A stretch of 64,000 nucleotides of DNA. Origin: Candidatus Woesebacteria bacterium (lineage in GTDB: Bacteria; Patescibacteriota; Microgenomatia; UBA1406; HO2-37-13b). The stretch is from the NCBI GenBank assembly GCA_018062135.1, contig JAGOSW010000001.1, positions 73,521 to 137,520 on the forward strand. Reading direction: 5' to 3'. Below are positions 18 to 37,850 of the stretch, piece after piece (position 1 is the stretch's first letter; each line of letters opens with the position of its first letter). The notes beneath the pieces were generated by a model, which was not told the origin of the DNA, did not search any database, and saw nothing but the letters and a program-made list of their open reading frames with translations. Both the position numbers and the translations under genes were made by a program.

Positions 18-731
18 TTGTGTCTGATAACTGGGCAAAGTTTTATTCTTCCGATGCATCAGTTTGTACAAATACTTTTAATATCTCTCGCTTTTAGCTA
101 TTTCGGAAACGTATTTTCATTATTAAGTATTGAACATGCACCGAATCCAGGATATCCACTTGTTATTTCTAAAAGCTACGTTGTTTTCACGACTATTATT
201 TCAATTCTCTTTCTTAATGGTGAATTTTCACTGAAGAAAACGATCGGTATTATCGTAATAGTTATTTTTTCTGCTCTGATTATGCTAGCTGACAAATCAT
301 CTAAAAAATCTAGAGACAGAAAATGGTTGCCATTAGCCTTTGGTGCATTCTTTTGTTGGGGTTTCTTGTCATTAAGTTCACGATATATGTTTGATCAAGG
401 AATAAATTTATATGTATATCTTTTTTATCTATATCTTGTCGTAACAACATGTATTATCTTAAATATTTCAAGAAAAAAAATTAACATGAAATTAATGTGG
501 GAGAACCCAATACTTTATTTGATTATTGGATTACTTTCGTTCAGTTTCAATTATTTTCAGTTTGAAGCGATAAAAACTGCGCCGAATATTGGTTATGTAA
601 ATGCTATCAATGCATCATCAATCTCGGCAGTTACACTTTTTGCCGCCCTCCTGTTTCACGACGAACTTACAAAGAGAAAATTGATAGGCGTTATAGGAGT
701 AACCTTTGGCTTGCTGATTATATTGTTATGA
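18..731 (+). CDS. EamA/DMT-family permease (true start uncertain, near window edge)
   Basis: Hydrophobic profile in two halves. The C-terminal half 'APNIGYVNAINASSISAVTLFAALLFHDELT' resembles the EamA repeat. Confidence 0.55.
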   Translation: MCLITGQSFILPMHQFVQILLISLAFSYFGNVFSLLSIEHAPNPGYPLVISKSYVVFTTIISILFLNGEFSLKKTIGIIVIVIFSALIMLADKSSKKSRDRKWLPLAFGAFFCWGFLSLSSRYMFDQGINLYVYLFYLYLVVTTCIILNISRKKINMKLMWENPILYLIIGLLSFSFNYFQFEAIKTAPNIGYVNAINASSISAVTLFAALLFHDELTKRKLIGVIGVTFGLLIILL

Positions 732-796
732 TATTAACCTATCTAGTAATTTATATGCGGCAATTCTCGAAGTATATAAATCGTTAAGAAAGTAAA

Positions 797-1942
797 ATGG
801 GTAAATTCTTTATTATCTTTTTTCTCTATCATCTTTTTCGAGCCTTCTTTATCGGAGTTACGACGCCACCTGTAGAAGGAGATAGCCTTGCATATCACAT
901 TCCAATTGCGCAAGAAATGTGGAATGGTGGACTTTTCCACCCAAAAGATATTCTTCATTTTTATCCAAGTGTCGGCGAAGCGATTCTTTCCATTTTTTAC
1001 CTCTTCCACATTCCTGCAAACATTTTCAATGTTGTAGGAACAATCTTATTGTTTCTTGCTACGAGAATTCTTGGGAAACAATCAGGTCTTAAGAATGAAT
1101 TGCCAACAATCTTTGCAGTTGCAGTATGTTTGCTGCCAATAACACTTCGATGGATTAATACCCAAGTAATAGATGTATGGCTCGCAATATTTTTTGTATG
1201 GAGTTTAGTTCTCCTTCAGAAGCCTAAAAAATCTGCAAAGTATTATCTGCTATTGGGTACGTCGCTTGGATTACTAATAGGAATAAAAAATTCTGGACCA
1301 GTCTTCGCAGCACTACTTTTAGTAGTGTATTGGGAAAAGATTAAGAGATATCTGCAACCGAAGAACGTATTTAATTTTGCTATTCCAGTAAGTATCCTTG
1401 GCATATTTTGGTATGTGCGTAATGTATTTTTAGTAGGTAATCCTTTGTACCCTCAAGCAGTTCTAGGACTTAAAGGCGCTCCGAATTGGGATATTCTTAA
1501 ATGGCGCGTTGGAGAAATTGCGATATGGTATCCGGATAAAATATTTAATGCATTAATTAGCGAATACATGGTTTGGAGTATTGCGGTTATAGTGCCATTA
1601 ATATTTATCAGATATGTTCACGATAATAGTGATATTAGAAAACTATTACTAATAGGCTATGCAAATCTATTATTCTTCTTGTTCCTACCGACGTCCCCAG
1701 AATACAGCATTATTGTTTCTAGTTTTCGTTATGCCTACCCAATGATAATTCCATTGATGTTAGTGACATTTTTTATCCTGCAAAGAATAAAGAAAGAAAA
1801 AATTATCATGCTACTTTCGTTAGCAAATATACTGTTCTTGCCAGGATATGAATATCAACCTAAGCTGCTTTTTATTTTTCTAGTAGGAGTCTTGTTATAC
1901 TTTCATAAGCATGACAAAGCTACCAACAACAGCGTCTTCTAA
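797..1942 (+). CDS. Polytopic membrane protein, candidate GT-C (ArnT/PMT-like) glycosyltransferase
   Basis: 381 aa with more than 10 predicted TM segments, overall resembling GT-C/ArnT-PMT-type membrane glycosyltransferases by eye. No specific catalytic motif was identified. Confidence 0.4.
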   Translation: MGKFFIIFFLYHLFRAFFIGVTTPPVEGDSLAYHIPIAQEMWNGGLFHPKDILHFYPSVGEAILSIFYLFHIPANIFNVVGTILLFLATRILGKQSGLKNELPTIFAVAVCLLPITLRWINTQVIDVWLAIFFVWSLVLLQKPKKSAKYYLLLGTSLGLLIGIKNSGPVFAALLLVVYWEKIKRYLQPKNVFNFAIPVSILGIFWYVRNVFLVGNPLYPQAVLGLKGAPNWDILKWRVGEIAIWYPDKIFNALISEYMVWSIAVIVPLIFIRYVHDNSDIRKLLLIGYANLLFFLFLPTSPEYSIIVSSFRYAYPMIIPLMLVTFFILQRIKKEKIIMLLSLANILFLPGYEYQPKLLFIFLVGVLLYFHKHDKATNNSVF

Positions 1943-2024
1943 ATCAATCTATAAAAATCAGTTTGTGGAAATAAAAGTAGACACCCTCTCACTTGATGGA
2001 AATTCTTCGGAATATTCAATAACA

Positions 2025-2687
2025 TTATAGCCAATCGATAGGGGCGATATTATGTTTGGCGAGATATTCGTTGCATTGACTAAAGTGATGATTGTTGTAA
2101 AAAAGTGAGACGGAATATGGTGAAGGATGGGCGGATGTCAGGACAAGATTTTCTTCTCGATCAATAACTTCTCCTTTTTTCTGTGCGTATTTTCCCCAGA
2201 GCATGTAGACAATATTCTTGCGGTCTTTATTAAGTGCGCCAATAACTGCATCGGTAAAAACTTCCCAACCTTTTCCTGCATGAGAAGCGGGTTTGCTTGC
2301 AAGAACGGTTAAGACACTGTTTAACATAAGAACGCCTTGGCTTGCCCAGCGAGTGAGATCTCCGGAAGGCAGTGGGTCAATATGTAAGTCATTGCGAATT
2401 TCTTGATAGATGTTTTTTAATGAGGGAGGAAGGCTAACGCCGTCATTGACGGAAAATGAGAGGCCATTTGCTTGTCCTTTTCCATGGTATGGATCTTGGC
2501 CGACGATAACTACTTTTACTTTATCGAATGGGCAAAGGTCGAAAGCGCGAAATACATTGGAGGATGGAGGGTAAACAGTATCTGAAAGATATTGTGAGCG
2601 AATTGTATCAGTAAGGGTATGCCAATAGGGTTTTTCAAATTCTTCTGAGAGGGCTTCTTTCCATGTGGGATCAATTTTTACGTCCAT
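2025..2687 (-). CDS. ung: Uracil-DNA glycosylase, family 1
   Basis: Motifs 'GQDPYHG', 'LLLN-like MLNSVLTV' and 'HPSPYS', with typical length of 220 aa. Confidence 0.95.
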   Translation of the reverse strand: MDVKIDPTWKEALSEEFEKPYWHTLTDTIRSQYLSDTVYPPSSNVFRAFDLCPFDKVKVVIVGQDPYHGKGQANGLSFSVNDGVSLPPSLKNIYQEIRNDLHIDPLPSGDLTRWASQGVLMLNSVLTVLASKPASHAGKGWEVFTDAVIGALNKDRKNIVYMLWGKYAQKKGEVIDREENLVLTSAHPSPYSVSLFYNNHHFSQCNEYLAKHNIAPIDWL

Positions 2688-2729
2688 AAGTTTTATAAGT
2701 AGATTTTATCATCTTATGAAGAAAAGAGC

Positions 2730-2759
2730 GGGCCCCCTCCGACGTATCGGAGGGGGCCC
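2730..2759 (-). terminator. GC-clamp hairpin terminator downstream of the GC-rich ORF
   Basis: GGGCCCCCTCCGA-cgta-TCGGAGGGGGCCC is a perfect 13-bp stem. On the minus strand it is followed by gctcttttctt. Confidence 0.6.
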
Positions 2760-2785
2760 TGCGTTGCGCGACGAGCCGAGTTGGC

Positions 2786-3328
2786 TCACCAAGGTCTGTT
2801 TGTACCGACTTCTGCCAGGAAGATCTTGACGGAATCCTGGGGGACGAGCTGTCCGGCGTATACTCCACGACCATCGGCTGACCTGAAGTACACCAGCAGA
2901 AGCGTCACACCGTCAACTTGGGTCTTGTAGGTTACCCATCGACCCATGATCCCAATTCGATACTCGTTGTTTGGACCAATGATGACGCTGCGACCACCAT
3001 AGTCAATGTCGTATCTGTACAACACGCCATTGTAGGTAAGGTTGTCTGGAATGAGCCCAGTCCACGATGGAGCCGATTCTGGGTCGATTTTCCGCATGAG
3101 GCGAATCTCGTCCAGCTCGCTTTTGCCGCCTTCGCCAAACTCATATCCAAGCCCAAGATAGTCCCATTCCCGTCGAGGCCCCAGTCCATAGATTCGATCA
3201 ATGAGCCTTGCTTCATCATCTTCGTCGAAGACTAATTCGACTTCTGTGATGAACGTCGCTGACTGCTCAGCATGGACGACGGCGACCATGCCTGCGTACC
3301 CATCGGTGATGGGAACATCGATGACCAT
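2786..3328 (-). CDS. Hypothetical protein (180 aa) encoded by a compositionally foreign, GC-rich ORF
   Basis: Long ORF with a GGAG Shine-Dalgarno 10 nt upstream. The sample line 3061-3120 has 35/60 G+C against 21/60 in native line 9421-9480. I recognise no motif. Confidence 0.7.
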   Translation of the reverse strand: MVIDVPITDGYAGMVAVVHAEQSATFITEVELVFDEDDEARLIDRIYGLGPRREWDYLGLGYEFGEGGKSELDEIRLMRKIDPESAPSWTGLIPDNLTYNGVLYRYDIDYGGRSVIIGPNNEYRIGIMGRWVTYKTQVDGVTLLLVYFRSADGRGVYAGQLVPQDSVKIFLAEVGTNRPW

Positions 3329-3384
3329 CTTTTTAGCACTCCAATCTTGTGTAGGTGCGCGCGAACGAAGCCTATATTATACCA
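3329..3384 (-). promoter_or_regulatory. Extended -10 promoter (TGGTATAAT, -10 at 3376-3381) plus about 40-nt leader with GGAG (3339-3342)
   Basis: Read on the minus strand: tttggTATAATataggcttcgttcgcgcgcacctacacaagattGGAGtgctaaaaagATG. Confidence 0.55.
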
Positions 3385-3435
3385 AACTATAGGTTATTCT
3401 TCTAACCTGAGCGCGCAAATTAGTATAATAGTCAC

Positions 3436-4491
3436 ATGAATCTTGCAGATTTTGATTACGAGCTACCACCAAGCCATATTGCAAACCAACCAACATTTCC
3501 GCGTGATGCTTCAAAATTAATGCTTATCAATAGAAAAACAAATGAGATTTCACATCATATATTTAAGGAATTGCCCGAACTCCTGGATAAAAACACCCTT
3601 CTTGTTCTTAACGATACTCGCGTGTATCCGGCACGAATTTATGGAAAAAAATCCACCGGTGGAAAAGTTGAGATGTTGCTTGTTAAGAAATTGGAAAATA
3701 ATATGTGGGAAGCTTTGACGAAACCTGGTCTTAGTGAGGGGACCATCGTGGATTTTGGTGAATTTACAATCGAAGTAATCGAAAAGCGAGAACGAACGTC
3801 ATTGATAAAACCAAATATTTCTGAAGATGAATTTTACAAAATTCTAGAAAAAACAGGCTCAATTCCCATTCCTCCCTATATTCATTCATCACTTTCAAGA
3901 GACGAATTAAAAGAAAAATACCAAACAGTATATGCAAATGAAACAGGATCAGCAGCTGCCCCAACAGCAGGATTGCATTTTACTTCTGAAGTATTTGAGG
4001 CATTACGGAAGAAAGGTATTGAAGTTGTATCGCTTACTTTACATGTCGGATTAGGAACCTTTGCACCAATTGATGATGAGAAGATAAAAGAAGGCAAGCT
4101 TCATGCTGAATATTTTGAAATCACAAAAGAAGAAGCAGAGAAAATTAATGCAGCAAAAAAATCTGGAAAGAAAATTATATCCGTCGGAACGACGACTCTT
4201 CGTGCATTAGAATCGGCGACTGATGATAATGGTTTATTGCAGCCTTTTATGGGCGAAACGACAATATTTATTAAACCGGGCTATTCGTTTCGCATGGTCG
4301 ATGGATTAATAACGAATTTTCATCTTCCAAAATCATCATTGCTTATGTTGGTATCGGCATTTTCCAGCTTTCCAAACACAGATGTTATTTTTACTGATTT
4401 TTCTCACAACGTAATTGGAAAAGCATATGAGAAAGCAATAGAAAATGACTATCGCTTTTTTTCGTTCGGCGATGCAACATTAGTACTATGA
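3436..4491 (+). CDS. queA: S-adenosylmethionine:tRNA ribosyltransferase-isomerase
   Basis: N-terminus 'LADFDYELPPSHIANQP', plus 'GSAAAPTAGLHF' and 'VGTTTLRALES' are typical of QueA. Confidence 0.95.
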   Translation: MNLADFDYELPPSHIANQPTFPRDASKLMLINRKTNEISHHIFKELPELLDKNTLLVLNDTRVYPARIYGKKSTGGKVEMLLVKKLENNMWEALTKPGLSEGTIVDFGEFTIEVIEKRERTSLIKPNISEDEFYKILEKTGSIPIPPYIHSSLSRDELKEKYQTVYANETGSAAAPTAGLHFTSEVFEALRKKGIEVVSLTLHVGLGTFAPIDDEKIKEGKLHAEYFEITKEEAEKINAAKKSGKKIISVGTTTLRALESATDDNGLLQPFMGETTIFIKPGYSFRMVDGLITNFHLPKSSLLMLVSAFSSFPNTDVIFTDFSHNVIGKAYEKAIENDYRFFSFGDATLVL

Positions 4492-5858
4492 AGAAACATT
4501 GGCATTGGATAGTTTTGGGAATTTCTATTCTCAGTTATGTTGTTGTTTTATCTTGGCTCTCAATTCTTCGTCATAATGCATTTGCGTCCGGTCTTGATCT
4601 GGGAAACATGGATCAAACAGTGTGGAATGGACTGCATGGAAGACCCTTTTCATTAACCTATGAAGGATTTAATCAACTTCGTTTTGCAGCTCACGCGGAT
4701 TTTTTTCTTATTCTCCTGAGCCCTCTGTATGTATTATGGAATAGCCCCCACACGCTTAATGTATTCGAGTCGCTATATCTTGGTCTAGGAGCTATACCAG
4801 TTTTTCTCATCGCGCGGCATCTGTTGAAAGATGTAAAACTCGCGCTCCTTTTTTCGGCAATCTATTTATTAAGTCCAGTGACGCAATGGATTGATATCTT
4901 TGATTTCCATTCTGTGTCATTTGCAGTTCCTTCATTACTTTTAGCATACTACTTTGTTCTGAAAAAGCAGTGGGGTTGGTATGGCATATCAATTTTTCTT
5001 GCTCTGCTTACGAAAGAACATATAGGTCTGCAAGTTGCAGTTTTGGGACTCATTATTGCGTTGGTTCATAAAGAAAAAAAGATGGGAGTTACCACATGCT
5101 TTTTAGGAAGTCTGTGGTTTTTTGTCATGGTCTTTGTAATTCTTCCACAGTTTAGTCTATCGGGAGAACACTGGGCATTTGCCTGGTATGATTTTGGCGC
5201 GAATATGATTAATCGCGTATTCTTTGATTCCGAGATTCGCGCATATTATGTATTGGTTCTAAAATCATTTGGCTTTCTGCCTCTACTTGGTCTTCCTTGG
5301 CTTATTCTGACGGCCCCAGATTTAGCAATAAACGTTCTTAGTTCTCATGCAGAAATGCATTCGATTAAATATCACTACACCAGCGGTCTTGTTCCTGGTC
5401 TTATGATCGCAGCGATATATGGCATGCTATTTGTAAAAAAGTTTGTAAGATTCCCAGTGGTTTCTTATGTAATTATGTTAGGTGCTTTGCTTATTGTTCT
5501 CCGTGTGAATTACCATTTCAGTCCTCTCCCAACGACTGAGTCATGTTGGTGCCAAAGTTATGAAGTCTCAGCAGATGACAAAGAATTTGAAAAAGTTCTG
5601 CAAAGTATTCCTACTTCTGCATCGGTAACGTCTTCGACAGAATTGCATGCCCATGTAACGCATCGCGAATTTGCCTATATGTTGCCGCACGCAACAGAAT
5701 CAGCAGACTTTATTGCGCTTATCGATCAGCATCGCGTTATCGATAACTATGGTCCGAAGCAATATGAATTGGACTTAGTTAAAAAACTTAATGAAGAAAA
5801 AAACTATGTGTTAGAAAAACACATCGGCCACTTCTATTTATATAAAAGATTGCAGTGA
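4488..5858 (+). CDS. DUF2079-family integral membrane protein
   Basis: Polytopic protein with 'GLDLGNMDQTVWN' near the N-terminus, characteristic of DUF2079. Its start overlaps the queA stop by 4 nt. Confidence 0.7.
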   Translation: MKKHWHWIVLGISILSYVVVLSWLSILRHNAFASGLDLGNMDQTVWNGLHGRPFSLTYEGFNQLRFAAHADFFLILLSPLYVLWNSPHTLNVFESLYLGLGAIPVFLIARHLLKDVKLALLFSAIYLLSPVTQWIDIFDFHSVSFAVPSLLLAYYFVLKKQWGWYGISIFLALLTKEHIGLQVAVLGLIIALVHKEKKMGVTTCFLGSLWFFVMVFVILPQFSLSGEHWAFAWYDFGANMINRVFFDSEIRAYYVLVLKSFGFLPLLGLPWLILTAPDLAINVLSSHAEMHSIKYHYTSGLVPGLMIAAIYGMLFVKKFVRFPVVSYVIMLGALLIVLRVNYHFSPLPTTESCWCQSYEVSADDKEFEKVLQSIPTSASVTSSTELHAHVTHREFAYMLPHATESADFIALIDQHRVIDNYGPKQYELDLVKKLNEEKNYVLEKHIGHFYLYKRLQ

Positions 5859-6360: not shown

Positions 6361-6942
6361 ATGAGCAGCCAATATATCGGAATTGCATCCGCTGTCTTAA
6401 ATCTAATTTCTGCTGTACCGTACGTGTATGCAATTTTCAAAGGGAAGGCCAGACCAAATCGAGTTACCTGGGTTATCTGGACATTCTTAGCATGGACTCT
6501 ACTATTTGCTTCTCTTGAAAGCGGTGCTTTTGCAACAACCTTTTGGATGGCAAGTTCGGCTTTAATTTGCACAACAATTACGATGCTATCCTTTTGGCGT
6601 GGAACATACGAGAAAGATTACATCGATATCGGGTGCTTCATATTTGGAATGATAGGGGTAGTTTTATGGAAGCTTACGAGTAATGCATCCGTGAGTGTGT
6701 ATATCGGCTCTTTTGTGGATATTATTGCGATACTACCGACGGTAAGAAAAGCGTGGAAGAATCCTGCCAGTGAACCGCGCGTTGCTTGGTCGCTCGGATT
6801 TATTGCTGCTCTATTAAATATCTTGGCTATAGATGCAATGAGACTTGTCATTATCGTGCAGCCGGTCGTAGTAGTGATCTGGCATATGATGATATTAGTG
6901 CCGTTGTATTTTAGAAAGCGAAAAAATCTATCAGTGGTATAA
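6361..6942 (+). CDS. Membrane protein with two PQ-loop-like repeats
   Basis: About 6 TM segments. Repeat 1 is 'ISAVPYVYAIFKGKARPNRVTW' and repeat 2 is 'ILPTVRKAWKNPASEPRVAW'. Confidence 0.5.
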   Translation: MSSQYIGIASAVLNLISAVPYVYAIFKGKARPNRVTWVIWTFLAWTLLFASLESGAFATTFWMASSALICTTITMLSFWRGTYEKDYIDIGCFIFGMIGVVLWKLTSNASVSVYIGSFVDIIAILPTVRKAWKNPASEPRVAWSLGFIAALLNILAIDAMRLVIIVQPVVVVIWHMMILVPLYFRKRKNLSVV

Positions 6943-6949
6943 TGCCAAT

Positions 6950-7990
6950 ATGTCGCGAACAATTCACAAAGAAGATCTTGATGCGTTTAGAAAGTTTGAT
7001 CTCCAAGAAGGCGCAAAAATTTATCGTGAATTACGCGATGAAATTAATTCAGCCGGACTTCTCAACCGCTCCTACGGCTATTACATTGTCCTAACAGCCT
7101 TTACATATATCGGATTCTTTTCCTCACTAGTCGCCATCTATCTAAGTCATAATCCAATCGTTATCACGATTCTCTCAATAATGTTTGCCGTTTTTTCAGT
7201 CCAAATATCTGGCCTCATTCATGATGCAGCCCATCGAGCCATTTTTAAATCACCAAAACTCAATGATATGTTTGGGCACTTCTTATCAGCAACAGTCGCG
7301 ACTGGGTATAGTAACTGGAGAGTCGCGCACGATAGACATCATGCAAAACCAAATCAAGATGGATTCGATCCCGATGTAGAAGTTCCTTTTAGTTTTACAC
7401 CTGAACGTTTTAAAAATAGTAAGGGGTTAGCTCGCCAAATAGGAAAATATCAAGCATATCTTTATTATCCACTTGGAACTTTAACATCACTGTCTGTTCG
7501 TTTTAAGAAAATGGTGTACTTTCAAGAAAATTGGCGTCGTGAAATATGGGGAGAAGTTCTTTTATTCATTGTCGCCATCGTATTACATTTTTCGATTCCT
7601 ATTTTCTTTTTCGGTATTGTAAAAGGCTTAGGGTTCTTAACAATCGTCACATTAGCAGAAGGATTTTACTTATTTAATGTCTTCGCGCCGAACCATAAAG
7701 GCATGCCCGAACTCGGCGACGACGTATCGCTCTCCTTTTTCGAGCAACAAGTCGTAACGGCGCGCAATGTATCTTCAAGTTCAGTCATCGACTACATTTT
7801 TCTCGGCCTGAACTTTCAAATCGAACACCACCTTTTCCCTACAGCCCCAAGAAATAAATTGCCTAAAATTGTTCCGTACGTAGAAAAGGTTTGCAAAAAG
7901 CATGGTCTTGACCATACAGAAACTAGCGCAGTAGAATCGGCTAAATTGCTTTTTAATGAAATGAAGGAAATGTCGAAAAGCTATGCGTAG
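6950..7990 (+). CDS. Membrane fatty-acid desaturase family protein
   Basis: Three His boxes, 'HDAAH', 'HDRHH' and 'QIEHHLFP', plus N-terminal TM segments. Confidence 0.9.
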   Translation: MSRTIHKEDLDAFRKFDLQEGAKIYRELRDEINSAGLLNRSYGYYIVLTAFTYIGFFSSLVAIYLSHNPIVITILSIMFAVFSVQISGLIHDAAHRAIFKSPKLNDMFGHFLSATVATGYSNWRVAHDRHHAKPNQDGFDPDVEVPFSFTPERFKNSKGLARQIGKYQAYLYYPLGTLTSLSVRFKKMVYFQENWRREIWGEVLLFIVAIVLHFSIPIFFFGIVKGLGFLTIVTLAEGFYLFNVFAPNHKGMPELGDDVSLSFFEQQVVTARNVSSSSVIDYIFLGLNFQIEHHLFPTAPRNKLPKIVPYVEKVCKKHGLDHTETSAVESAKLLFNEMKEMSKSYA

Positions 7991-7992
7991 CT

Positions 7993-8130
7993 TTACGGAT
8001 TTCTTCGAGAAGGTTGTCTGATCGCGGTGAAGACTTTCTTTCCACTAGAAAATCCTTTCATCTTCTGGTGCTTTCCAGGAATAGACTCCCTCATAAATGA
8101 ATGAATTGGATTATTTTTGTCCTTTGCCAT
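7993..8130 (-). CDS. Small basic ORF (45 aa), not in the supplied ORF track
   Basis: ATG at 8130-8128 and TAA at 7995-7993. The product is MAKDKNNPIHSFMRESIPGKHQKMKGFSSGKKVFTAIRQPSRRNP. It fills an otherwise empty 160-bp gap. Confidence 0.25.
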   Translation of the reverse strand: MAKDKNNPIHSFMRESIPGKHQKMKGFSSGKKVFTAIRQPSRRNP

Positions 8131-8152: not shown

Positions 8153-8428
8153 ATGGACAGAAGAAAAATAGAAAATATAACTGCTTCTTTGGCGATTCTC
8201 TTGCTCTTTCTCATGACCTTTATCGGGATTCTTCTGATGGGCGATCTTTTCTTTAACTGGGACATCTTTTCTCCAGAGGTAGAAAAACTTATCGGATTCG
8301 CGATGGCCTCTTGTGGCGTCATAATATTCTCTTCGGTGTTAGTTAATGTAATGTTGAATTTAAGTATTATTGCAATAAATTCGGACGATTTCTTGGAAAT
8401 GTATGAGAGAAACCAGCGCAAAAAATAA
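8153..8428 (+). CDS. Small 2-TM membrane protein
   Basis: Two hydrophobic helices. TATAAT at 8140-8145 lies 7 nt before the ATG. Confidence 0.5.
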   Translation: MDRRKIENITASLAILLLFLMTFIGILLMGDLFFNWDIFSPEVEKLIGFAMASCGVIIFSSVLVNVMLNLSIIAINSDDFLEMYERNQRKK

Positions 8429-8954
8429 GCAACTAAATTTTAAAGGAATACTTTCGACTATTTTTCTTCTTGCTGTCTTTATTTTCTTTGCGACAATGCT
8501 GTTTGATGGACTGAATAAGTATAGAGCAGCAAAATTGTATAAAGAATATTCATCAGAGTCTCAGGTATATATGGAAAAAAATAAAGGTGGTCTTACTCAA
8601 ATTTTTGTAGACATGCAAAACACAACATGCGCTTTTACTCCCTGCGGCTCATTCGATAAAGATGAGCTAATGAATTTAATAAGTCATGATCTAAAAGATT
8701 TTAGTTCAACGGCATTCATTGCGACAAATAAAAGTGGCGTGATGATGCTTATGAATCTTTCTGGAGAAAGAGAATTGCTATTTGGAACCGATCCTATGTG
8801 GCAGAAACTTAAAGAATTGTTAGCTGGAACAAGAACAGAGCTTCCTTGGGATGATTACACATATGTTTTTGAAGGGAAAGAAGTTGTTGTGCCTTTTAAG
8901 AATGCTGATGGAAAAGTAATAGGGCTTTTAATGCGCGCTGCGGTCGCTAAGTAG
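8403..8954 (+). CDS. Membrane-anchored hypothetical protein
   Basis: N-terminal TM segment followed by a soluble domain. It overlaps the upstream ORF, which suggests an operon. Confidence 0.5.
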   Translation: MRETSAKNKQLNFKGILSTIFLLAVFIFFATMLFDGLNKYRAAKLYKEYSSESQVYMEKNKGGLTQIFVDMQNTTCAFTPCGSFDKDELMNLISHDLKDFSSTAFIATNKSGVMMLMNLSGERELLFGTDPMWQKLKELLAGTRTELPWDDYTYVFEGKEVVVPFKNADGKVIGLLMRAAVAK

Positions 8955-9032: not shown

Positions 9033-9407
9033 TTACTCACCAAAACCTCGGTCGTTGTCCATATCGTTTCCTCCCATGGAATTACCCATGTCAGAGTTGT
9101 TATCATCACGGTTTCCACCGCGATTATCTCCACCTCCGAAACGATTTTCACGAGGTTGTTGAGGTCGTGCATCACTTACGGTGATTGGACGTCCATCAAA
9201 GTCTTGTCCATTAAATTGGTCTTTAGCTTGATTTGCTTCTTCTTCAGAAGACATTTCAACGAAACCAAATCCTTTTGATTTTCCTGTGTATTTATCGGTT
9301 ATGACTGTTGCTGAGACGACTGTTCCTACTTGTGCAAAATGATTTCTCAATGCATCTTCGGTAGTGCCCCAAGAAAGTCCCCCGACGAATAATTTACTTG
9401 CTGCCAT
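9033..9407 (-). CDS. RRM-domain RNA-binding protein with Gly/Asn/Asp-rich tail
   Basis: RNP2 'LFVGGL' and RNP1 'KGFGFVEM'. Confidence 0.9.
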
Positions 9408-9528
9408 TAATCTTTCACCTCTCTTTCTGAAAAACGTGTGTATTTCTGTCGATCAATGCAATATTCATTTGTGGGGAATTATGATTGTCTTTTAAACAGA
9501 AGAACATATATTTAACACGTATATAGAT

Positions 9529-9556
9529 ATTATATCTGGGAAATAAGAAGTGTCAA
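9529..9556 (-). promoter_or_regulatory. Sigma70-type promoter TTGACA-16-TATAAT for the RRM gene, with a 5' UTR of about 110 nt
   Basis: Minus-strand TTGACA at 9556-9551 and TATAAT at 9534-9529. Confidence 0.6.
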
Positions 9557-9565
9557 GAGAAGAGT

Positions 9566-9607
9566 GAGATCGTCCCCCCGGCTTGTCGCCGGGGGGACGG
9601 TGATCTC
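9566..9607 (-). terminator. Long GC hairpin downstream of the GC-rich 165-aa ORF
   Basis: GAGATC-GTCCCCCCGGC-ttgtc-GCCGGGGGGAC-ggt-GATCTC. Confidence 0.6.
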
Positions 9608-9631
9608 GCACCGAACAGATGGTGGTGGCCG

Positions 9632-10129
9632 TCAGGCCGCCATGGGCGTCGAGTTCGGCAGGAACAACGGCGCGTCCTCGTCCGCGATCACGGCCTCGCT
9701 GTTGACGAAGCAGATGGCGCGACAGGACTCGATCGACGCGGCGCCGATGACTTCGTCCCAGGCCGAGGGCAGTCCGCTGACGCCACACGCCAAACGATGT
9801 CGGAAGACCCCGCCTGAGTACAAGACGTCTCCGTCCATGAGTAGGTGCGGGTAGAACCGCACGAGCTCGCGGGTGTCGCACTGCTCGCGCCAGGCCTCGA
9901 AGGCCTTCTGACGAGCGATCTCGACGTACTCCTTGCCCTCCGGGATCGCGCCGACGGTGACCTCGAAGAGGATGCGCGGCTCGAAGAGGGGCGAGGAAGG
10001 GTCGATCAGGACGACGTGGATGGCCTCCCGGCCTCCGGTCAAGTTGTTGGCCACGAAGCTGTCCAGCAGTGGCTGCGCCACGAGCCGAACGGCCTCCTCG
10101 GCCTGCTCCCTGTACAGGAAATGGGTCAT
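9632..10129 (-). CDS. GC-rich ORF, GlcG/HbpS (DUF336)-like putative haem-binding protein
   Basis: The segment 'GGVFRHRLACGVSGLPSAWDEVIGAASI' resembles the GlcG core 'GG.....GA.GVSG....QD...A'. Line 9661-9720 has 40/60 G+C. Confidence 0.6.
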   Translation of the reverse strand: MTHFLYREQAEEAVRLVAQPLLDSFVANNLTGGREAIHVVLIDPSSPLFEPRILFEVTVGAIPEGKEYVEIARQKAFEAWREQCDTRELVRFYPHLLMDGDVLYSGGVFRHRLACGVSGLPSAWDEVIGAASIESCRAICFVNSEAVIADEDAPLFLPNSTPMAA

Positions 10130-10246
10130 CGGTTTTTGCCTGTGCCTTTCTGTCTAGTGATTGTGAGGTGCGAGAAACAAGCCACTATTATACCTCAAAA
10201 GTTCAAGGAAATCAATATTATAGGACGTGTATGAGCTCAAGGTCAA
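10130..10246 (-). promoter_or_regulatory. Two candidate promoters and a leader for the 165-aa ORF
   Basis: Minus-strand TTGACC (10246-10241), 18 nt, TATAAT (10222-10217). A second GGTATAAT has its -10 at 10192-10187. GAAAGG lies upstream of the ATG. Confidence 0.5.
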
Positions 10247-10340
10247 TCCAGTTTGAGCATCGTGTAAAACTTCCTACACGTTTTATACCCATAATGGGCC
10301 ATATAGTGGGTCAATTTTTGCAAGGAGTTTCAAAGTGTAG

Positions 10341-10547
10341 TTAAGGAGTTGCTGAGAATAGAAGTGAGCCGCGGCGGTTGCCTGCCTCAACCTCAGCGCC
10401 AGGGGCATTGAGTCCGGCCTGGGCCGTCTCGACGGCATCGTCGAGCATCTCGTCAGGGTCCGTCAGCGGTTCATTCCCCGCAGCGGAAATTGCGGCAAAG
10501 AGTTCGTCAATCTCTGCTACGATAAGGCGTCTTCTTCGTCCGGGCAT
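10341..10547 (-). CDS. GC-rich ORF, small acidic protein (68 aa)
   Basis: Line 10381-10440 has 42/60 G+C. The product is Asp/Glu/Ala-rich after an N-terminal RRRR. No motif recognised. Confidence 0.5.
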   Translation of the reverse strand: MPGRRRRLIVAEIDELFAAISAAGNEPLTDPDEMLDDAVETAQAGLNAPGAEVEAGNRRGSLLFSATP

Positions 10548-10584
10548 GTCGCTCTACTTTCTACTGAAAACGACCGAATATCAG

Positions 10585-10598
10585 GTTACTATTGTAAC
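10585..10598. promoter_or_regulatory. Palindrome GTTAC-tatt-GTAAC overlapping the TACAAT -10 (10591-10596, minus) of the 68-aa ORF
   Basis: Inverted repeat read directly from the sequence. It sits between divergent promoters. Confidence 0.35.
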
Positions 10599-10631
10599 AC
10601 GGAGGTCTTTGAGGTGAGTATAATAAGATTT

Positions 10632-10754
10632 ATGGAGATCTTCGGTAAAAAGTACGACATTGGTTCGATCCTCGCACTTCTCATCATTATCCCCTTCGCA
10701 TTAGTCGCATTAGCATACGCCATCTTGTTTATTATTTTTTCTCTTGCTTTATAA
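10632..10754 (+). CDS. Leaderless 40-aa hydrophobic peptide, not in the ORF track
   Basis: TATAAT at 10619-10624 lies 7 nt before the ATG. The product is MEIFGKKYDIGSILALLIIIPFALVALAYAILFIIFSLAL. Confidence 0.35.
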   Translation: MEIFGKKYDIGSILALLIIIPFALVALAYAILFIIFSLAL

Positions 10755-15692: not shown

Positions 15693-16499
15693 ATGGCAAA
15701 ACGACTCGTCTGTCTTAAGCTCGGAGGAAGCCTCATAACTGATAAAGCAAAGCCAATGGAGGCAAAGCTGAATGTTATTGAGACACTCGCTAATCAAATC
15801 GCAACCGCATTAAAAAAGGATCCTGATCTTCAAATAATTATTGGCAATGGTGCCGGCTCCTTTGGCCATTATGCCGTCATCACACATCATATGCAAAATG
15901 GCCTAAATGAGCCAGGAAAAAATATGGGTTATGCGTTGGTCCAACAAGCTGTTGCAAAGCTCAATAGATGTATAGTTGATGCGCTTCTAAAGGCAGGAGT
16001 TCCCGCAGTTTCTTATCAACCTTCGGCAACCCTTCTCGGAAAAGATGGCGCAATAAAAAACTTTCCCCTAGAATTTCTTGAAGAAGCTCTGGCGCACAAC
16101 ATTATTCCCGTCATGTACGGTGACATTATTTTTGATAAAGAAAAAGGTTCGATGATCGCCTCAACGGAGTTGCTTATTGGCGCCGCCGCAGCAGCTCTCA
16201 CGAAAAAAGGATATAAAATACATAAAGTAATTCATAACGGCGTTACGCAAGGTGTTCTTGATGCAAAGCAAAATGTGATCTCACGTATAACCAGGAAAAA
16301 TCTCGAGGATGTTAAGAAATTAATCTATGCAACAGACGGTTTCGATGTTACGGGTGGTATGTTGCACAAAATTGAAGAATCGCTCGTTCTTGCAGATCAA
16401 GGTATCCCTTCAATGATCATTAACGGAGTTTCAGAAAAAGATCTTCTTATGAAAGCCCTCCTAGACAAAGAGGTAAAAGGAACGCGCATCACTGCTTAA
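15693..16499 (+). CDS. Isopentenyl phosphate kinase (amino-acid-kinase fold)
   Basis: 'LKLGGSLITDK' and 'GNGAGSFGH' match the IPK signature. Confidence 0.75.
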   Translation: MAKRLVCLKLGGSLITDKAKPMEAKLNVIETLANQIATALKKDPDLQIIIGNGAGSFGHYAVITHHMQNGLNEPGKNMGYALVQQAVAKLNRCIVDALLKAGVPAVSYQPSATLLGKDGAIKNFPLEFLEEALAHNIIPVMYGDIIFDKEKGSMIASTELLIGAAAAALTKKGYKIHKVIHNGVTQGVLDAKQNVISRITRKNLEDVKKLIYATDGFDVTGGMLHKIEESLVLADQGIPSMIINGVSEKDLLMKALLDKEVKGTRITA

Positions 16500-16933
16500 T
16501 TGATTGGTTGAATTGATGCGCCTGGGTCATTTCCTCCTCCCGGATTAGAACCTCCAGGATTTGTACTACTACCACTATTTATTGATGGGATTTTAAATTG
16601 AAATCCACCGTTTTCAAATTTAATGGTCCCGAGGACGTTTGATGCAATGAAAGCCCAAATAGTAAGTGCGGCTACCATTATAAGAATGCCGATAATAGCA
16701 TTTAGAATTTTTCCCTGAGCTGCTGATATCTTTTCGCTATCTCCTCCAGAAGTAATCCAGTCAAGACCACCCCAAATAAGCTGAACAGCCAATATTATTC
16801 CAGCGATAGCAAAAATAAAGTTTAGACCAAAAGAAACGAGCCTTGTTATAGTTTCTGGTACTGTACCTGTATTAATTCCAGCTGGTCCTGGAGCCTTGAT
16901 TGGTTCGCCAAAAATATCATCGATACTACTCAT
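16496..16933 (-). CDS. TrbC/VirB2-like (T4SS-pilin-type) small membrane protein
   Basis: Two TM helices flank 'WGGLDWITSGGDSEKISAAQGKILNAIIGILI'. The tail is Gly/Asn/Pro-rich. Confidence 0.6.
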   Translation of the reverse strand: MSSIDDIFGEPIKAPGPAGINTGTVPETITRLVSFGLNFIFAIAGIILAVQLIWGGLDWITSGGDSEKISAAQGKILNAIIGILIMVAALTIWAFIASNVLGTIKFENGGFQFKIPSINSGSSTNPGGSNPGGGNDPGASIQPIN

Positions 16934-17232
16934 AATAAGAATGGAATTTCAAAAATTGTCGTAATTAAGCGTACTAGGAAAAAGCTAATAAATATTACTA
17001 CAATACCCAAACTTACATACAATATGGTGTTTTTTCCTGATTCAAGCTTTGCCTTATCTCCTCCTGCAGTAATAAAGAAGAAGGCGCCGCGAATTAATAC
17101 GATTAAAGCAATGAGTGTAATAACAACAAACCCGAAAGGAATAATTAAACCGAGCATTGTATTAATAGTTCCAAAACGAGCAGGAGCAAAATTGTCAGGA
17201 TTAATAAAGGGTGTAGGATTCATACTATACAT
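16930..17232 (-). CDS. TrbC/VirB2-like (T4SS-pilin-type) small membrane protein
   Basis: 'IRGAFFFITAGGDKAKLESGKNTILYVSLGIVVI' between two TM helices. It overlaps the downstream paralog by 4 nt. Confidence 0.6.
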   Translation of the reverse strand: MYSMNPTPFINPDNFAPARFGTINTMLGLIIPFGFVVITLIALIVLIRGAFFFITAGGDKAKLESGKNTILYVSLGIVVIFISFFLVRLITTIFEIPFLL

Positions 17233-30692: not shown

Positions 30693-30920
30693 ATGAAGGC
30701 TATACAGTATCAACATAAGAACGTACTGTTTACACTATTGGCCTTAGGCGCGGTCTTTTTACTGGCTCCTTTTCTTCTTACCTTCGACTCTCTCTATTAC
30801 ATGATCGTTCGTCCCTCATGTTTACAATGTGGCGCACTTCCAGAATTTTTACGTAGTCAATCGCTCACAGCAGCAATGTTGTCGTCACTCAATGTTTATC
30901 AGTTTCCGGCGAAAAAATAA
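30693..30920 (+). CDS. Small membrane protein (75 aa)
   Basis: One TM helix. TGGTATAAT at 30661-30669 lies upstream. Its stop overlaps the next ATG (TAATG). Confidence 0.45.
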   Translation: MKAIQYQHKNVLFTLLALGAVFLLAPFLLTFDSLYYMIVRPSCLQCGALPEFLRSQSLTAAMLSSLNVYQFPAKK

Positions 30921-33900
30921 TGGCTAGTCCTGAACAAGGAGGAAATCCGGAAACACCACTCCAGCGAAAAATTCGTGAAACCCGTGAGTTTATTCGCCGT
31001 TTACTGGGTCAAGTAGATGCTGATCCGCAAAAAACTGACGCGCAAAAAAAACAAGAGAAAGAAAGCATGGCCAGAACATCGCAAGATGAATTAAAGAGAA
31101 AAGTAAGTGACTACGAGAAAATTCCTGAAAGTCAGAGAGATGATGACAAAATTGAGGAAGACATGCTTACTCATGTAAATGAATTGGCAGAATTGGTTAA
31201 GAATAAAGTTGTCCCCCATGTGCCAGAGATTACTGAAGCTGTCGTTATTGCTCTTGCGACGAAGAAATTCGATAAGAAAAAAGCACTATTAATAGGATCA
31301 ATTGTAGGCGAAATTGTGGATTCTCCAGAATTTAAGTCAGTCGCAAATCGTGGTATTGATGAAGTGCGGGGGAGTTTGAAGAATCTGGCATCTCGATTGC
31401 GTGGTGAGGGGCATGGTGATATGGCGGATACAATTGATGGTGAAGTTGCAGCTTCAGAGCCTCCTAAGGAGCCACCTAAGCCTCCAGAGGGACCACCGGG
31501 AGGACCGCCAGGAGCACCAGAAAGACGCGAAGATGAAGAAGACGATGATCGCGAAGACATCGAAAAATATTTAAACAAGCATTATCACCAATTAAAAGCA
31601 ACGAGAGACGCCAGTGGAAATATTATAGAAGGCACTGAAAACTGGCTTGATATCGAAACTCAAAAAAAAGGCGGATACTATGGACTTACTCAGGAGCTGC
31701 AAAGAAGTTTGCTGGGCGCGGCAATTATTCGCCAGATTGATCTGACGCGCCGCCAAAGAGTTGTACTTCGTGCATTTGATGGCGGCGATGAATTTAGAAC
31801 ATATTTTAGAGCCACGCGCGAAATGCTTGCCGATAAGGCAACTGAGGCAGGTAAGCCGACTTCTCCTGACGATATTTCTATTAATACTGCGTATAAAGCC
31901 ATGAGTAATGATGTTAAAGATATCGTCAGAGAATTCTTATCGACACTCAGTGGGACCGTTGATCAATCAAGTCAAAAAGAGACGCAATATATAGGTATGC
32001 TGGTTGAGCGTATTTCGCGCAACATCAGAACAGAAATAGCAGGCGACACTGAGATGGATGTTCCAGGGAAGATTAAATTAGAAGGTACAGATGCGCTCTT
32101 ACCTTCTGATAAACAGACGGAGTCAAATAGAGGTCCAGGCAAAGATGGAATGTTAATCGGTGGTATGAATGAATATCTTGTACCTCGTAATGTAGAAGTT
32201 TCGATGAGCGAGGCGCTTGTTGATGACCTTGCGTCCACTATAACTAAATTGCAAAAGATTACTGTTGGCTTCCATAATGCTCGTACTTTTGCTTATTCTG
32301 GCGGTAGCCATAAAGATTTCGGTGAACAGCTTAAGAAAGATGGTGTTAAGCCAGCAGATTTGGTTTGGACCTTTAAAAAAGAAGAAGATGTAAATTTAGG
32401 TTACAACTTACTTATTCAGAGTCTCCAACAACTAAAGTCGCAGACTGCTAGGACTGTCACAGAGCGCTATGGCTCAATGTCTAAAGTCGGAGGCCTTACG
32501 GAAGCTGAATATCGCGCCTGGATTCAGATGCTCGCGTTGGATGATGACTATAGAAAAGCTGAATCTGATCATAAACTCGCCCAAGATGCACAAGACAGTA
32601 TTCGTGAGAAGAAGAATAAAAAAGCTATGGACCGCATAAAGCAAAAGAAATTGCGTGCTATTAAAATGGCAAGTGGTATCGCATGGGGACATAGTCGAGA
32701 AGCTTGGGGTGTGCTTCTCGATGCGAAGCTACTTGTAAAGAGAAGTGGAAAAGGTACTGAAGATGAACCATTTACTATTGGTCAACATTATGGCGGCTCA
32801 CAATCATCTGGAATTGAGAAAATGCTTGCAGAACTTCATCCGGAGATGCTTGACGATCGCTGGGGAAGAGATAAAATTGCACCGATTTGGATGTTGTATC
32901 AACCGAGAGATCTTGAGGCCGCGGATACTGGGTGGAAGAGCAGCGAACCATTTTCACATACACGCATTTACGATCTATATGATCAAAACCAGAAAGCTTT
33001 TTACAGTGGGCGTTCTGATGACCTTGCTGACTTTGATGATGAGTATATAACCGTTCAGGAGTTTGCAAATGTGACTTCGCTCCATATGCTACGACGTGAA
33101 AGCTGGCGCCTTCGTCAATATGATCTATATTCAGATAGATATGCGAAAGAAGCAGAAGATAAAGGCCTGCAAGGAATGAAAAAACACGAGTATATGACTA
33201 AGCGCCTCATGATACGAGGCGGTCCTCGCTTAGTAAAAATGTACATAGATAAGAATGTGAAGGATTTGATGAAAGATGATAAAAAAATGGATCGAAAGCA
33301 CGTACGGAGACTTGAGAAGGCAAGTAAAGCTGAAGAAGCAGAAGAAAAAACAGGTATGGAAACTAATGGTCGGCGCAAGGCGCAAGCAGAAGGTCGAGCG
33401 GCTAAACAACACGGCCTTGAGACATATTATGAAAAATTCATATTTGATGATCTGTCGAAGCGTTTCGCGACGAGTTTAATCGGTTTTGAACAACCACGAT
33501 ACATGCCACAGAACGAGAATACGCTTTATACTGCACTTAATTCTTATGTAGAGAAAATTCCCTTCTTTCAAGATCTTCCAGCAAATGTATTGCAGACAGA
33601 GATTTATCCTGTATATATTGATGCAATACATACGATAGAGCGGAACAAATGGGAAAAGTATACAAAAAGTAAAGACGGCGATACGGAAGCACAAATAAAA
33701 CGCCAGCTCGAGGATCCACAAGATCTTACGGATGCTGACTTTGATGATCCGGATATTAAATCTAAATTAAGAACGCACTATAAACTTAATCAAGAGCGCA
33801 TTGGAGAGATTACTGACGATAAACATAAACTTAATGCTGATTTTGAAGAATATTATGAATCCCTAAAAGGTTTCCATAGAAAATTATTGCAAGAGCGCGA

Positions 33901-34843: not shown

Positions 34844-34865
34844 CAAATCAACTTTTTGGTATAGT

Positions 34866-35684: not shown

Positions 35685-35685
35685 A

Positions 35686-37332: not shown

Positions 37333-37373
37333 TACTATTCATTCTAAAGGAAATGTATGAGGGTGTGCAAGCT

Positions 37374-37838
37374 CTAACGATATTCGATAAGTAGGCCAGC
37401 AGCCTGGGTAGGAGAAAGGCCTAATTCAATCAGCCATTCATTAAGTTTAGCTTCTGAGAGAGCTCTATCTTGGCCTTTTATGGTAGCAATGAACGAAAAA
37501 TCTGGATTCCCTTCAGGTCGCATCTTTCCATCGATGCGGAAATACTGATTTTCAAAGGGAATTTTATTGTACAGATAGATATCTGGGTAGTCTTGTCTTT
37601 GGCCTTGGTCAACCTCTTCATCAATATCAATGGGATCAGCCGGCCCATCTTGCTGAGGTGTTTCTGTAATGTTTGGATTTGTTGAGCCAGTACTACCTTC
37701 TATGATTGGTGGGTTTTGGCTGTCTAGAGGCTTTTCAGAAGATACGTTTCTATTCAGTGAGAATACAAAGGCACCAATAAGAATGATAAGTAAAATACCT
37801 GAACTTAAAAGTAAGCCGATTAATATTCTGTTTCTCAT
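37374..37838 (-). CDS. Membrane-anchored hypothetical protein (154 aa)
   Basis: An N-terminal TM helix, a Pro/Asp-rich linker and a small globular C-terminus. Confidence 0.5.
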   Translation of the reverse strand: MRNRILIGLLLSSGILLIILIGAFVFSLNRNVSSEKPLDSQNPPIIEGSTGSTNPNITETPQQDGPADPIDIDEEVDQGQRQDYPDIYLYNKIPFENQYFRIDGKMRPEGNPDFSFIATIKGQDRALSEAKLNEWLIELGLSPTQAAGLLIEYR

Positions 37839-37850
37839 ATGGTGTATATT

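Follow-up and report, generated by a model that had tools for sequence, protein, structure and literature searches.

Foreign-looking GC-rich genes in a conserved promoter-terminator slot of a Woesebacteria genome, with alleles exchanged among related Patescibacteria

Two adjacent GC-rich open reading frames (ORFs) of 165 and 68 aa lie on the minus strand between msrB and a gene for an RRM_1 protein in the genome of Candidatus Woesebacteria bacterium. They were studied in a stretch of 64,000 nt (GCA_018062135.1, JAGOSW010000001.1 positions 73,521-137,520), referred to here as the window, whose own coordinates are used throughout. The host belongs to Patescibacteria, also called Candidate Phyla Radiation (CPR). 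Its MgtE protein is 93% identical to that of metagenome-assembled genome (MAG) CAZTOA01, 74-75% identical to those of CAZTFB01 and 'Microgenomates bacterium OLB23' and about 60% identical to that of Saccharimonadales. An earlier reading of the letters alone, the first-pass annotation, had described the two ORFs as GC-rich insertions in a redox-stress neighborhood. Loci and contigs from relatives are numbered with the prefix L.

The GC content of the window is 0.397; among its 68 longest non-overlapping ORFs, G+C at third codon positions (GC3) has a median of 0.34 and a standard deviation of 0.085. The 165-aa ORF (9632-10129) has a GC content of 0.659 and GC1/2/3 values of 0.65/0.43/0.89. Its GC3 lies more than six standard deviations from that of the window genes, and the three values form the classic pattern of a true gene of a high-GC genome. 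For the 68-aa ORF (10341-10547), GC is 0.59 and GC1/2/3 are 0.73/0.51/0.55. In a 60-nt profile, every ORF end shows a drop in GC from about 0.65-0.70 to 0.30-0.40 over some 60 nt, and the two ORFs are separated by 200 nt with GC at the native level (0.37-0.43). The hand counts of the first-pass annotation (40/60 G+C in 9661-9720 and 42/60 in 10381-10440) are exact, and the ORF-limited anomaly that it reported is real and sharper than described. The sole further GC3 outlier in the 64 kb is a 180-aa ORF (2786-3328, minus strand; GC3 0.58). A GC-raised stretch at 38032-38797 was rejected as a candidate for foreign DNA: it lies in a CHAP-domain gene with a GC3 of 0.33 and a GC2 of 0.48 and is an effect of amino-acid composition.

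Identical GC-rich/AT-rich junctions are present in at least 16 other assemblies (L001-L010, L103, L112-L114, L117 and L118). These comprise nine Logan contigs (SRR14092354-390), one contig each from SRR29748427, SRR13076506 and ENA, the metagenome-scan contigs L117 and L118, the NCBI MAG CAZTOA01 and the closed 938-kb chromosome OZ246401.1. Because both junctions are spanned in at least 16 independent assemblies, a chimera is excluded for the window. Many public MAGs of this clade (among others L017, L018, L032, L054 and L103) are mislabeled as 'uncultured Gammaproteobacteria' or 'Pseudomonadales', while their gene content and closest relatives are those of Patescibacteria.

The 165-aa ORF has a transcription unit of its own, with all elements on the minus strand. 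Upstream, in DNA of native composition, lie tandem putative promoters of the sigma-70 type (10187-10246), namely TTGACC-18-TATAAT at 10246->10217 and TTGATT-17-(GG)TATAAT at 10215->10187, the latter ending in GGTATAAT. They are consensus matches that are conserved across orthologs: TCCTATAATATTGATT-N16-GTATAAT is invariant in the window, L001, L010, L112, L103, L011 and L097, while the ORFs diverge down to 39% identity. The 5' leader (10130-10186) carries the conserved GGCTTGTTTCTCGCACCT and a Shine-Dalgarno-like AGAAAGG. The leader sequence GGYTYGTTTCTCGCACCT is kept far better than the ORF; its start is invariant in the window, L010, L112, L103 and L011 and almost so in L001. The window, L001, L010, L103, L112 and L011 have identical copies of the leader portion ..TTTCTCGCACCT and of the 3' element GGTGCGAGA; L097 has a variant of each. 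Where alleles differ, similarity stops immediately after TCTCGCACCT. The sequence TCCTATAATATTGATT followed by GTATAAT was also seen upstream of unrelated genes in the CPR MAGs L100, L102, L104, L105, L109 and L110, including a Roizmanbacteria MAG, and may be a common strong-promoter form in CPR bacteria.

A 9-nt inverted repeat brackets the ORF. Its 5' arm TCTCGCACC (10167-10175) is the perfect complement of its 3' arm GGTGCGAGA (9604-9612), which is located 20 nt past the stop codon and shares GAGA with the lower stem of the terminator. The pair is kept in L001, L010, L103, L011 and L112, a partly compensatory variant is found in L097, and only two exact copies of the repeat occur in the window. 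In the minimum-energy fold of the transcript, the 5' arm pairs with the 3' arm. The terminator hairpin (9566-9607) consists of an upper stem (9571-9582/9588-9599) and a lower stem (GAGATC/GATCTC), with a computed energy of -47.1 kcal/mol (z = -5.8 against 200 shuffles). It is kept in the window, L001, L010, L103, L112, L011 and L097, with compensatory substitutions in orthologs (GTCCCCCC/GGGGGGAC versus GTGCCCCC/GGGGGCAC, and GAGATC/GATCTC versus GAGACC/GGTCTC). The hairpin ends 10 nt from the promoter of the RRM gene (TTGACA-16-TATAAT, 9556->9529). Promoters and hairpin thus stand where the first-pass annotation had placed them, and the flanking genes are those that it had named: RRM_1, SelR (msrB), AhpC-TSA (bcp) and an ECF (extracytoplasmic function) sigma factor by Pfam, with MgtE in between. 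A fatty-acid desaturase gene also flanks the locus.

The nearest homologs of the 165-aa ORF occupy the same msrB-RRM location in related CPR genomes and are GC-rich as well. Identity to the window allele and GC3 are 93% and 0.83 for L001, 78% and 0.89 for L010, 70% and 0.96 for L103, 46-51% and 0.80 for L011, and 39% and 0.78 for L097; the genes neighboring these alleles have a GC3 of about 0.35. All homologs with at least 39% identity are syntenic CPR orthologs, and the high-GC actinobacterial donor that had been proposed was not found among them. That the best matches are CPR orthologs of the same GC is the outcome set beforehand as speaking against a simple recent import, a claim that is thus not supported. 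The unit, its promoter and its terminator are shared by lineages in which the neighboring proteins are only 55-92% identical (mostly 59-79%).

Within this conserved frame the ORF is swapped. Codons 1-38 and the RRM promoter are 100% identical between the window and L010, but the remainder of the gene is only 74% identical. In L112/L113, the MgtE protein is 93% identical to that of the window and the promoter, leader, repeat and 3' untranslated region (UTR) are the same, but the ORF, missed by gene callers, encodes a 171-aa family member (GC3 0.87) whose best match among the collected family members is 39% identical and for which the window allele falls outside the top 15. L118 combines the window ORF with an L112-type terminator. 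The msrB-RRM slot of L018 (MAG CAZTFB01, 4164-5460) is filled by some 1.3 kb of unrelated sequence, roughly 1 kb of it with a GC content of 60-68%. This cargo includes a 253-aa ORF (GC3 0.73) with its own GC hairpin; it is devoid of the 9-nt repeat, has no Pfam match and has no relative in 185,579 genomes. L047 (OLB23) contains only an N-terminal remnant of the gene, next to a native DUF1801 gene. Because unrelated cargo (L018) or a remnant (L047) replaces the module beside the same msrB, mgtE and RRM-gene flanks, the link to redox functions is positional only, and the idea of an imported redox-sensing accessory finds no further support.

In comparisons of the window with L001, the RRM gene has 0.05 synonymous substitutions per synonymous site (dS), the ORF 0.23, msrB 0.50 and a 183-aa gene 1.49. 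Genealogies shift abruptly along the locus, and the region is therefore a recombination mosaic. The dS jump between the RRM gene (9033-9560) and the adjacent 183-aa gene (8403-8954) would indicate a recent recombination tract that ends between these two genes. Between direct repeats of CCTCTTCGAG, the window-type 165-aa gene of L117 (OBLX010002781.1) has lost 18 nt in frame, and with them six residues. The near-identical strain L114 carries, beside the fatty-acid desaturase gene, a Peptidase_M42 gene (6679-8045; GC 0.61, GC3 0.76) that has no close relative in the 185,579 reference genomes; the matching position in the window is taken by a native 193-aa gene. A hydrophobic ORF of 40-46 aa (MEIFGKKYDI...; window 10614-10754, plus strand) is located between the small GC-rich ORF and msrB. 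Its conservation in every relative examined makes it a marker of where the variable slot has its fixed border on the left.

An acidic, clade-restricted ORF of 65-66 aa is present in truncated form as the 68-aa ORF. Its putative extended -10 element TGTTACAAT (10599->10591), found at the position given by the first-pass annotation, is the same in L010 and L103 and reads TGTTACAAA in L001. The sisters L001-L010 have a complete terminator for this ORF, GTGAGCCGCGGCGG-CAA-CCGCCGCGGCTCAC. Relative to them, the window has a 72-bp deletion that removes the conserved C-terminus (GRGLxCDPxxM) and the left terminator arm; the right arm CCGCCGCGGCTCAC survives at 10364-10377, with the deletion junction at about 10383/10384. 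A further deletion leaves 46 aa in L114, the whole 330-bp unit is missing from the near-identical strain L118, and the ORF is absent from L097 too. Only six matches exist in 5.8 billion proteins, all from the same clade, and the ratio of nonsynonymous to synonymous substitution rates (dN/dS) is 0.33-0.6. From these comparisons, the small ORF is a dispensable, clade-restricted ORFan that is decaying in the window strain. Because it is present, truncated or absent independently of the large ORF, the two are separate units, as had been suspected.

A third GC-rich module on the minus strand (2730-3381) consists of a putative promoter TGGTATAAT, a leader ..GGCTTCGTTCGCGCGCACCT.., the 180-aa ORF and a terminator at 2730-2759. 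Its leader motif GGCTTCGTTCGCGCGCACCT resembles GGCTTGTTTCTCGCACCT of the 165-aa gene, and its 3' motif GGTGAGCCAAC resembles GGTGCGAGACCAAC of L103 and L011. In its design it matches the 165-aa module. The 180-aa ORFan adjoins queA, and a syntenic GC-rich homolog (35% identity, GC3 0.71) is found at L011 16220-16930, in a relative with 55-92% identity in the neighboring proteins. For the combination TATAAT-N(3-30)-GCACCT, the window has four sites where 0.23 would be expected, and the two large GC-rich ORFs account for two of them. The other two, at 12822 and 35391, were dismissed as coincidence, one being at the start codon region of bcp and the other inside a plus-strand gene. Together, the 165-aa and 180-aa modules suggest a small class of modules in this clade, for which two examples are too few for proof.

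The first-pass annotation had likened the 165-aa product to GlcG/HbpS (DUF336) proteins, a resemblance that stands at the level of the fold; in Pfam and NCBIfam the window protein has no match. It has no PF03928 (HbpS-like, DUF336) match at E ≤ 0.1, stays below the Pfam gathering threshold of that family and has no NCBIfam DUF336 match even at E = 0.1-1. A word-indexed search of 5.8 billion proteins returned only two sequences (93% and 78% identity), while an HMMER profile search of 1.84 billion cluster representatives returned 360 relatives at E ≤ 1e-3. Weak PF03928 matches were present in 11 of the 75 best relatives (best E 1.2e-4), and a profile of these 75 sequences found no PDB chain by sequence. 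The AlphaFold2 (AF2) model built from the 75-sequence alignment has a pLDDT (predicted local distance difference test) of 94.9 and a pTM (predicted template modeling score) of 0.89; this alignment was required, as one of the three close sequences alone gave an unusable model (pLDDT 44). In a Foldseek search against the PDB, ranks 1-17 all have the DUF336 fold (E 5e-5 to 1e-2, probability ≥ 0.99), and the probability falls to ≤ 0.44 thereafter. The top 17 include HbpS (3fpv, E = 5e-5), NahX, OrfY, EfgA, PduOC, the Desulfovibrio piger protein 4nkp and Ybr137w, with template modeling (TM) scores over the 17 matches of 0.45-0.57 when normalized by the query and 0.46-0.67 when normalized by the target. 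The model thus shows the fold seen in 3FPV, 2A2L, 6BWS and 5CX7. We predict from it that the protein belongs to the DUF336 superfamily, as a member of an uncurated sister family of PF03928, which is defined here with 360 members at E ≤ 1e-3. One position, G106, does not vary within this family, and each of S118, G119 and D125 is kept in all sequences or in at least 90% of them. These residues may correspond to what we take to be the DUF336 signature, a Gly-x-Ser-Gly ... Asp/Glu motif in a loop that precedes the C-terminal helix.

With a dN/dS of 0.19-0.33 against sister alleles, the 165-aa ORF is a functional gene. DUF336 proteins bind small ligands (heme, cobalamin, formaldehyde) as oligomers (PMC8153426, PMC4923194, PMC3754957). 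By analogy, the protein most likely binds a small ligand (heme, a corrinoid or an aldehyde), probably as an oligomer. HbpS is an extracellular, heme-sensing protein (PMC8153426, PMC3754957) that works with SenS and SenR, i.e. it is secreted by the twin-arginine translocation (Tat) pathway and has an adjacent two-component system. Neither hallmark was found for the 165-aa protein: its N-terminus MTHFLYREQAEE leads straight into helix 1 of the model, with no room for a signal peptide, and none of the 36 proteins scanned (1-29 kb of the window) is a sensor kinase or response regulator. HbpS-type signaling is therefore unlikely. The protein, predicted to be cytoplasmic, resembles EfgA/GlcG-type members more than the secreted HbpS (PMC8153426). 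Distant homologs (28-30% identity) are present in Burkholderia and Cupriavidus replicons, and in L115 (B. multivorans, 252-3465) the homolog overlaps the end of an adjoining gene for an MsbA-like ATP-binding cassette (ABC) exporter. On the CPR contigs L014/L015 (4691-7033), the homolog is likewise directly downstream of an MsbA-like ABC exporter gene. This pairing in two distant lineages may reflect a conserved functional link, and it is the only functional hint that genomic context gives for the 165-aa protein.

Mobile elements and related loci were searched for widely. PADLOC, PHROGs and NCBIfam gave no match for any GC-rich ORF, and tblastn of the 165-aa protein against phages gave none either. 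Pattern searches found no related loci in reference genomes and viral contigs; the flank motifs had only chance matches in viral contigs, and none of 240 loci held the repeat pair or a family member. Neither an integrase, a transposase nor a phage gene is among the 36 scanned proteins, and no tRNA gene or integrase was found near the module. A literature search yielded no description of GC-rich ORF modules in CPR genomes. Elsewhere in the window lie two T4SS_pilin genes (16496-17232) and a cluster (30920-39347) whose products include a protein of 1307 aa, a polytopic membrane protein of 548 aa and a CHAP-domain protein; the cluster has a type IV secretion-like look. Such an apparatus is a possible route of DNA exchange.

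The explanation that we favor, and to which we assign about an even chance, is that of a foreign-derived accessory module, bounded by promoter and terminator, in a recombination-prone locus where ORFs decay in place and are replaced by fresh alleles. The region consists of two independent single-gene units between msrB and the RRM gene; in each, a GC-rich ORF is preceded by an AT-rich promoter and followed by a hairpin terminator that is GC-rich as well, and the coding parts would be of high-GC foreign origin. Promoter, leader, 9-nt inverted repeat and terminator would form an 'expression slot' that is fixed and vertically conserved, and the ORFs would now be housed in it. Recombination would exchange the slot ORF across strains and lineages, which would bring divergent alleles, and even unrelated cargo, to the same slot in close relatives. 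Resident alleles would drift to AT, their GC3 range of 0.96-0.78 reflecting differing residence times, and the small ORF would be a second, dispensable module that is decaying in the window strain. The comparisons establish the anatomy, coding status and fold, the conserved flanks, the swapping of alleles, the variable presence of the small ORF and the direction of recent substitutions; a foreign origin, repeated replenishment of alleles and ligand binding are inferred from them. Several observations are consistent with this. The alleles have GC3 values of 0.78-0.96 and encode proteins with far more Arg than Lys, in genomes with a GC3 of about 0.34, and the distant Burkholderia and Cupriavidus homologs (28-30%) also fit a foreign type of composition. 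On the terminal branches of the window and L001, 22 GC-to-AT changes stand against 3 AT-to-GC changes, and 14 against 0 at third positions. Other cargo of the clade is also GC-rich (the L018 ORFs, the L114 M42 peptidase gene and the 180-aa ORF), and in 1.09 Mb of CPR loci, GC islands this strong are almost confined to this clade.

Other results weigh against the favored explanation. No donor or outside GC-rich reservoir was found in 5.8 billion clustered proteins, 1.84 billion cluster representatives, 185,579 reference genomes (a pattern-based search that detects close relatives only), viral contigs, phages and plasmids, and the close relatives are all from CPR genomes. A recently acquired islet would have its best homologs in a composition-matched donor lineage; the nearest high-GC homologs here are those of Burkholderiaceae, at 28-30% identity. 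Four-fold sites are saturated between the window and L011 (0.41 identical versus 0.40 expected), and GC3 is still 0.80-0.89; because it persists despite this saturation, neutral amelioration after a single ancient import is contradicted. The dS of the ORF between the window and L001 (0.23) is below that of msrB (0.50) and the 183-aa gene (1.49), a difference that might stem from constraint at synonymous positions instead of recent exchange. GC3 likewise exceeds that of the neighboring genes for more distant family members in other CPR genomes (z = 1.2 to 5.7), and the function of the 165-aa protein is wholly inferred. GC-biased gene conversion was rejected as an unlikely driver, as the RRM gene in the same recently exchanged tract (dS 0.05) keeps a GC3 of 0.27.

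These same points feed the possibility, which we consider rather unlikely, that the genes are old, vertical genes of the clade maintained in place with no repeated import, their GC-rich synonymous sites being under selection, for example for a stable mRNA with its ends paired (5' leader with 3' UTR) or for codon-dependent, stress-tuned translation. Apart from the GC3 of the four-fold-saturated orthologs and the lower dS of the ORF relative to its native neighbors, it would account for the 9-nt 5'/3' complementarity, kept in six orthologs and in a partly compensatory form in L097, for the paired transcript ends in the minimum-energy fold, for the related leader and 3' motif of the 180-aa module and for the raised GC3 of the family in every context checked. 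The GC-rich coding sequences also fold more stably than synonymous-codon shuffles in 7/7 cases (z -1.1 to -3.3), but native controls have negative z values too (-3.4 for the RRM gene), and for single sequences the end duplex only marginally beats shuffles (p 0.007-0.24). Maintenance is further at odds with the strong net loss of GC on recent branches and the spread of GC3 among alleles, and the unrelated L018 cargo and the L114 M42 gene, GC-rich as well, point to a shared source over a gene-specific need. A bolder and tentative proposal, which we think doubtful, is that the clade keeps a set of single-gene expression slots, each combining a fixed native promoter, a common leader motif, a repeat that pairs the 5' and 3' ends and a terminator, whose ORFs are held at GC3 0.8-0.96 through complete synonymous turnover in a genome of 40% GC. 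If true, this would need either active, gene-specific maintenance of composition, with selection acting on codon choice or the structure of the mRNA, or steady resupply from an unseen high-GC partner, e.g. the host of the epibiont.

The repeat itself could alternatively mark the ends (TCTCGCACC/GGTGCGAGA) of a small non-autonomous element or site-specific cassette, containing a ribosome-binding site and an ORF, that a recombinase or transposase from another part of the genome would carry into fixed expression sites. Between the window and L112, L103 and L011, 5' similarity ends at the inner edge of the repeat; on the 3' side, L112 and L103 become similar again within the final codons, some 20 nt ahead of the repeat, and L011 at the repeat itself. 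An identical repeat surrounds mutually very divergent ORFs, and the ends of the 180-aa module are related. A cassette should combine an end site with a cognate recombinase, yet the conserved repeat that bounds the ORF is accompanied by no recombinase or transposase in the proteins scanned between 1 and 29 kb. Target-site duplications were not seen, the window/L010 breakpoint is within the ORF, as in ordinary homologous recombination, the viral-contig scan held neither repeat pair nor family member, and the scarcity of the repeat (two copies in 64 kb) and its absence from the L018 cargo argue in the same direction; we regard such a cassette as improbable. Two recent, separate actinobacterial imports giving an HbpS-type extracellular heme/redox accessory fit the high-GC codon and amino-acid usage, the DUF336-type fold with HbpS as top match and the redox-related neighbors. 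This origin is largely refuted and very improbable: there are zero actinobacterial matches, the best non-CPR relatives seen being those of Burkholderiaceae, the unit with its promoter and terminator is common to lineages with strongly diverged neighboring proteins, signal peptide and SenS/SenR-like partner are lacking, and the module is absent or different in relatives with the same flanks. As for an assembly chimera or contamination from a high-GC organism, contig L012 (JGI 3300045372, 2794 bp, GC 0.64) carries 2.3 kb of proteobacterial-like DNA (64% GC, including a DUF3391 gene) fused to the 3' half of an L103-type allele and the CPR RRM promoter. It was tried as a donor contig and rejected on account of that half-allele and promoter, which leave a choice between a chimeric assembly and a rearranged strain with a true foreign-DNA insertion in the slot. 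For the window, the recurrence of the junctions across several projects, including the closed chromosome, the promoter, leader and terminator kept around the ORF and the purifying selection on it leave this explanation practically no chance, and we consider it already refuted.

CPR bacteria are thought to be host-attached and have small, streamlined genomes, and the routes and sources of their gene gain are largely unknown. The locus offers a concrete, repeatedly sampled case of foreign-looking ORFs in a conserved promoter/terminator slot that are exchanged among lineages. Finding where the GC-rich alleles come from could reveal the host of this uncultured clade or a partner with which it exchanges genes. 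Should no source exist, a single gene near GC3 0.9 in a genome of 40% GC would provide an unusually clean test of synonymous-site selection in bacteria.

Among known systems, the protein compares best with the DUF336 superfamily. HbpS, GlcG, the PduO C-terminal domain and EfgA of Methylorubrum extorquens share its predicted fold and its size (about 140-170 aa), and the Ser-Gly...Asp motif is kept before the last helix in the 165-aa family, although the 165-aa protein, unlike these families, is below all Pfam and NCBIfam thresholds. HbpS of Streptomyces reticuli differs by its Tat signal and its SenS/SenR partners. EfgA is a cytoplasmic small-molecule sensor without conserved genomic context (PMC8153426). 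Similarly, the 165-aa protein is predicted to be cytoplasmic and has no conserved operon partner.

The unit as a whole can be set beside three other systems. According to the model of Lawrence and Ochman, horizontally acquired genes undergo amelioration. Atypical GC3, an Arg-rich and Lys-poor protein, a patchy distribution and net GC-to-AT change on recent branches agree with this model. The module departs from it in that its limits match those of the ORF, that lineages with saturated synonymous sites in the neighboring genes use one and the same slot, and that no donor was found. Phage 'morons', as reportedly described by Hendrix and colleagues, are single genes of atypical composition with their own promoter and terminator, inserted between two genes. 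The GC-rich ORFs are built likewise, each with its own putative sigma-70-type promoter and a hairpin terminator, contrast sharply in composition with their neighbors and are present or absent as a unit. In contrast to morons, the module is located among chromosomal housekeeping genes (msrB, mgtE, the RRM gene and the fatty-acid desaturase gene) and not in a prophage, with no PHROG, phage or viral-contig matches, and promoter and terminator stay while the ORF is exchanged. Capsule/O-antigen and bacteriocin-immunity loci are allelic cassettes that are kept diverse by recombination between conserved flanks. Like them, the slot has conserved flanks, alleles that diverge deeply even among close relatives, and breakpoints of a mosaic kind; it differs in that it holds one small, predicted cytoplasmic gene, that all alleles share a composition foreign to the genome and that no selective agent is evident. 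Overall, the unit resembles a moron in its build and an allelic cassette in its behavior.

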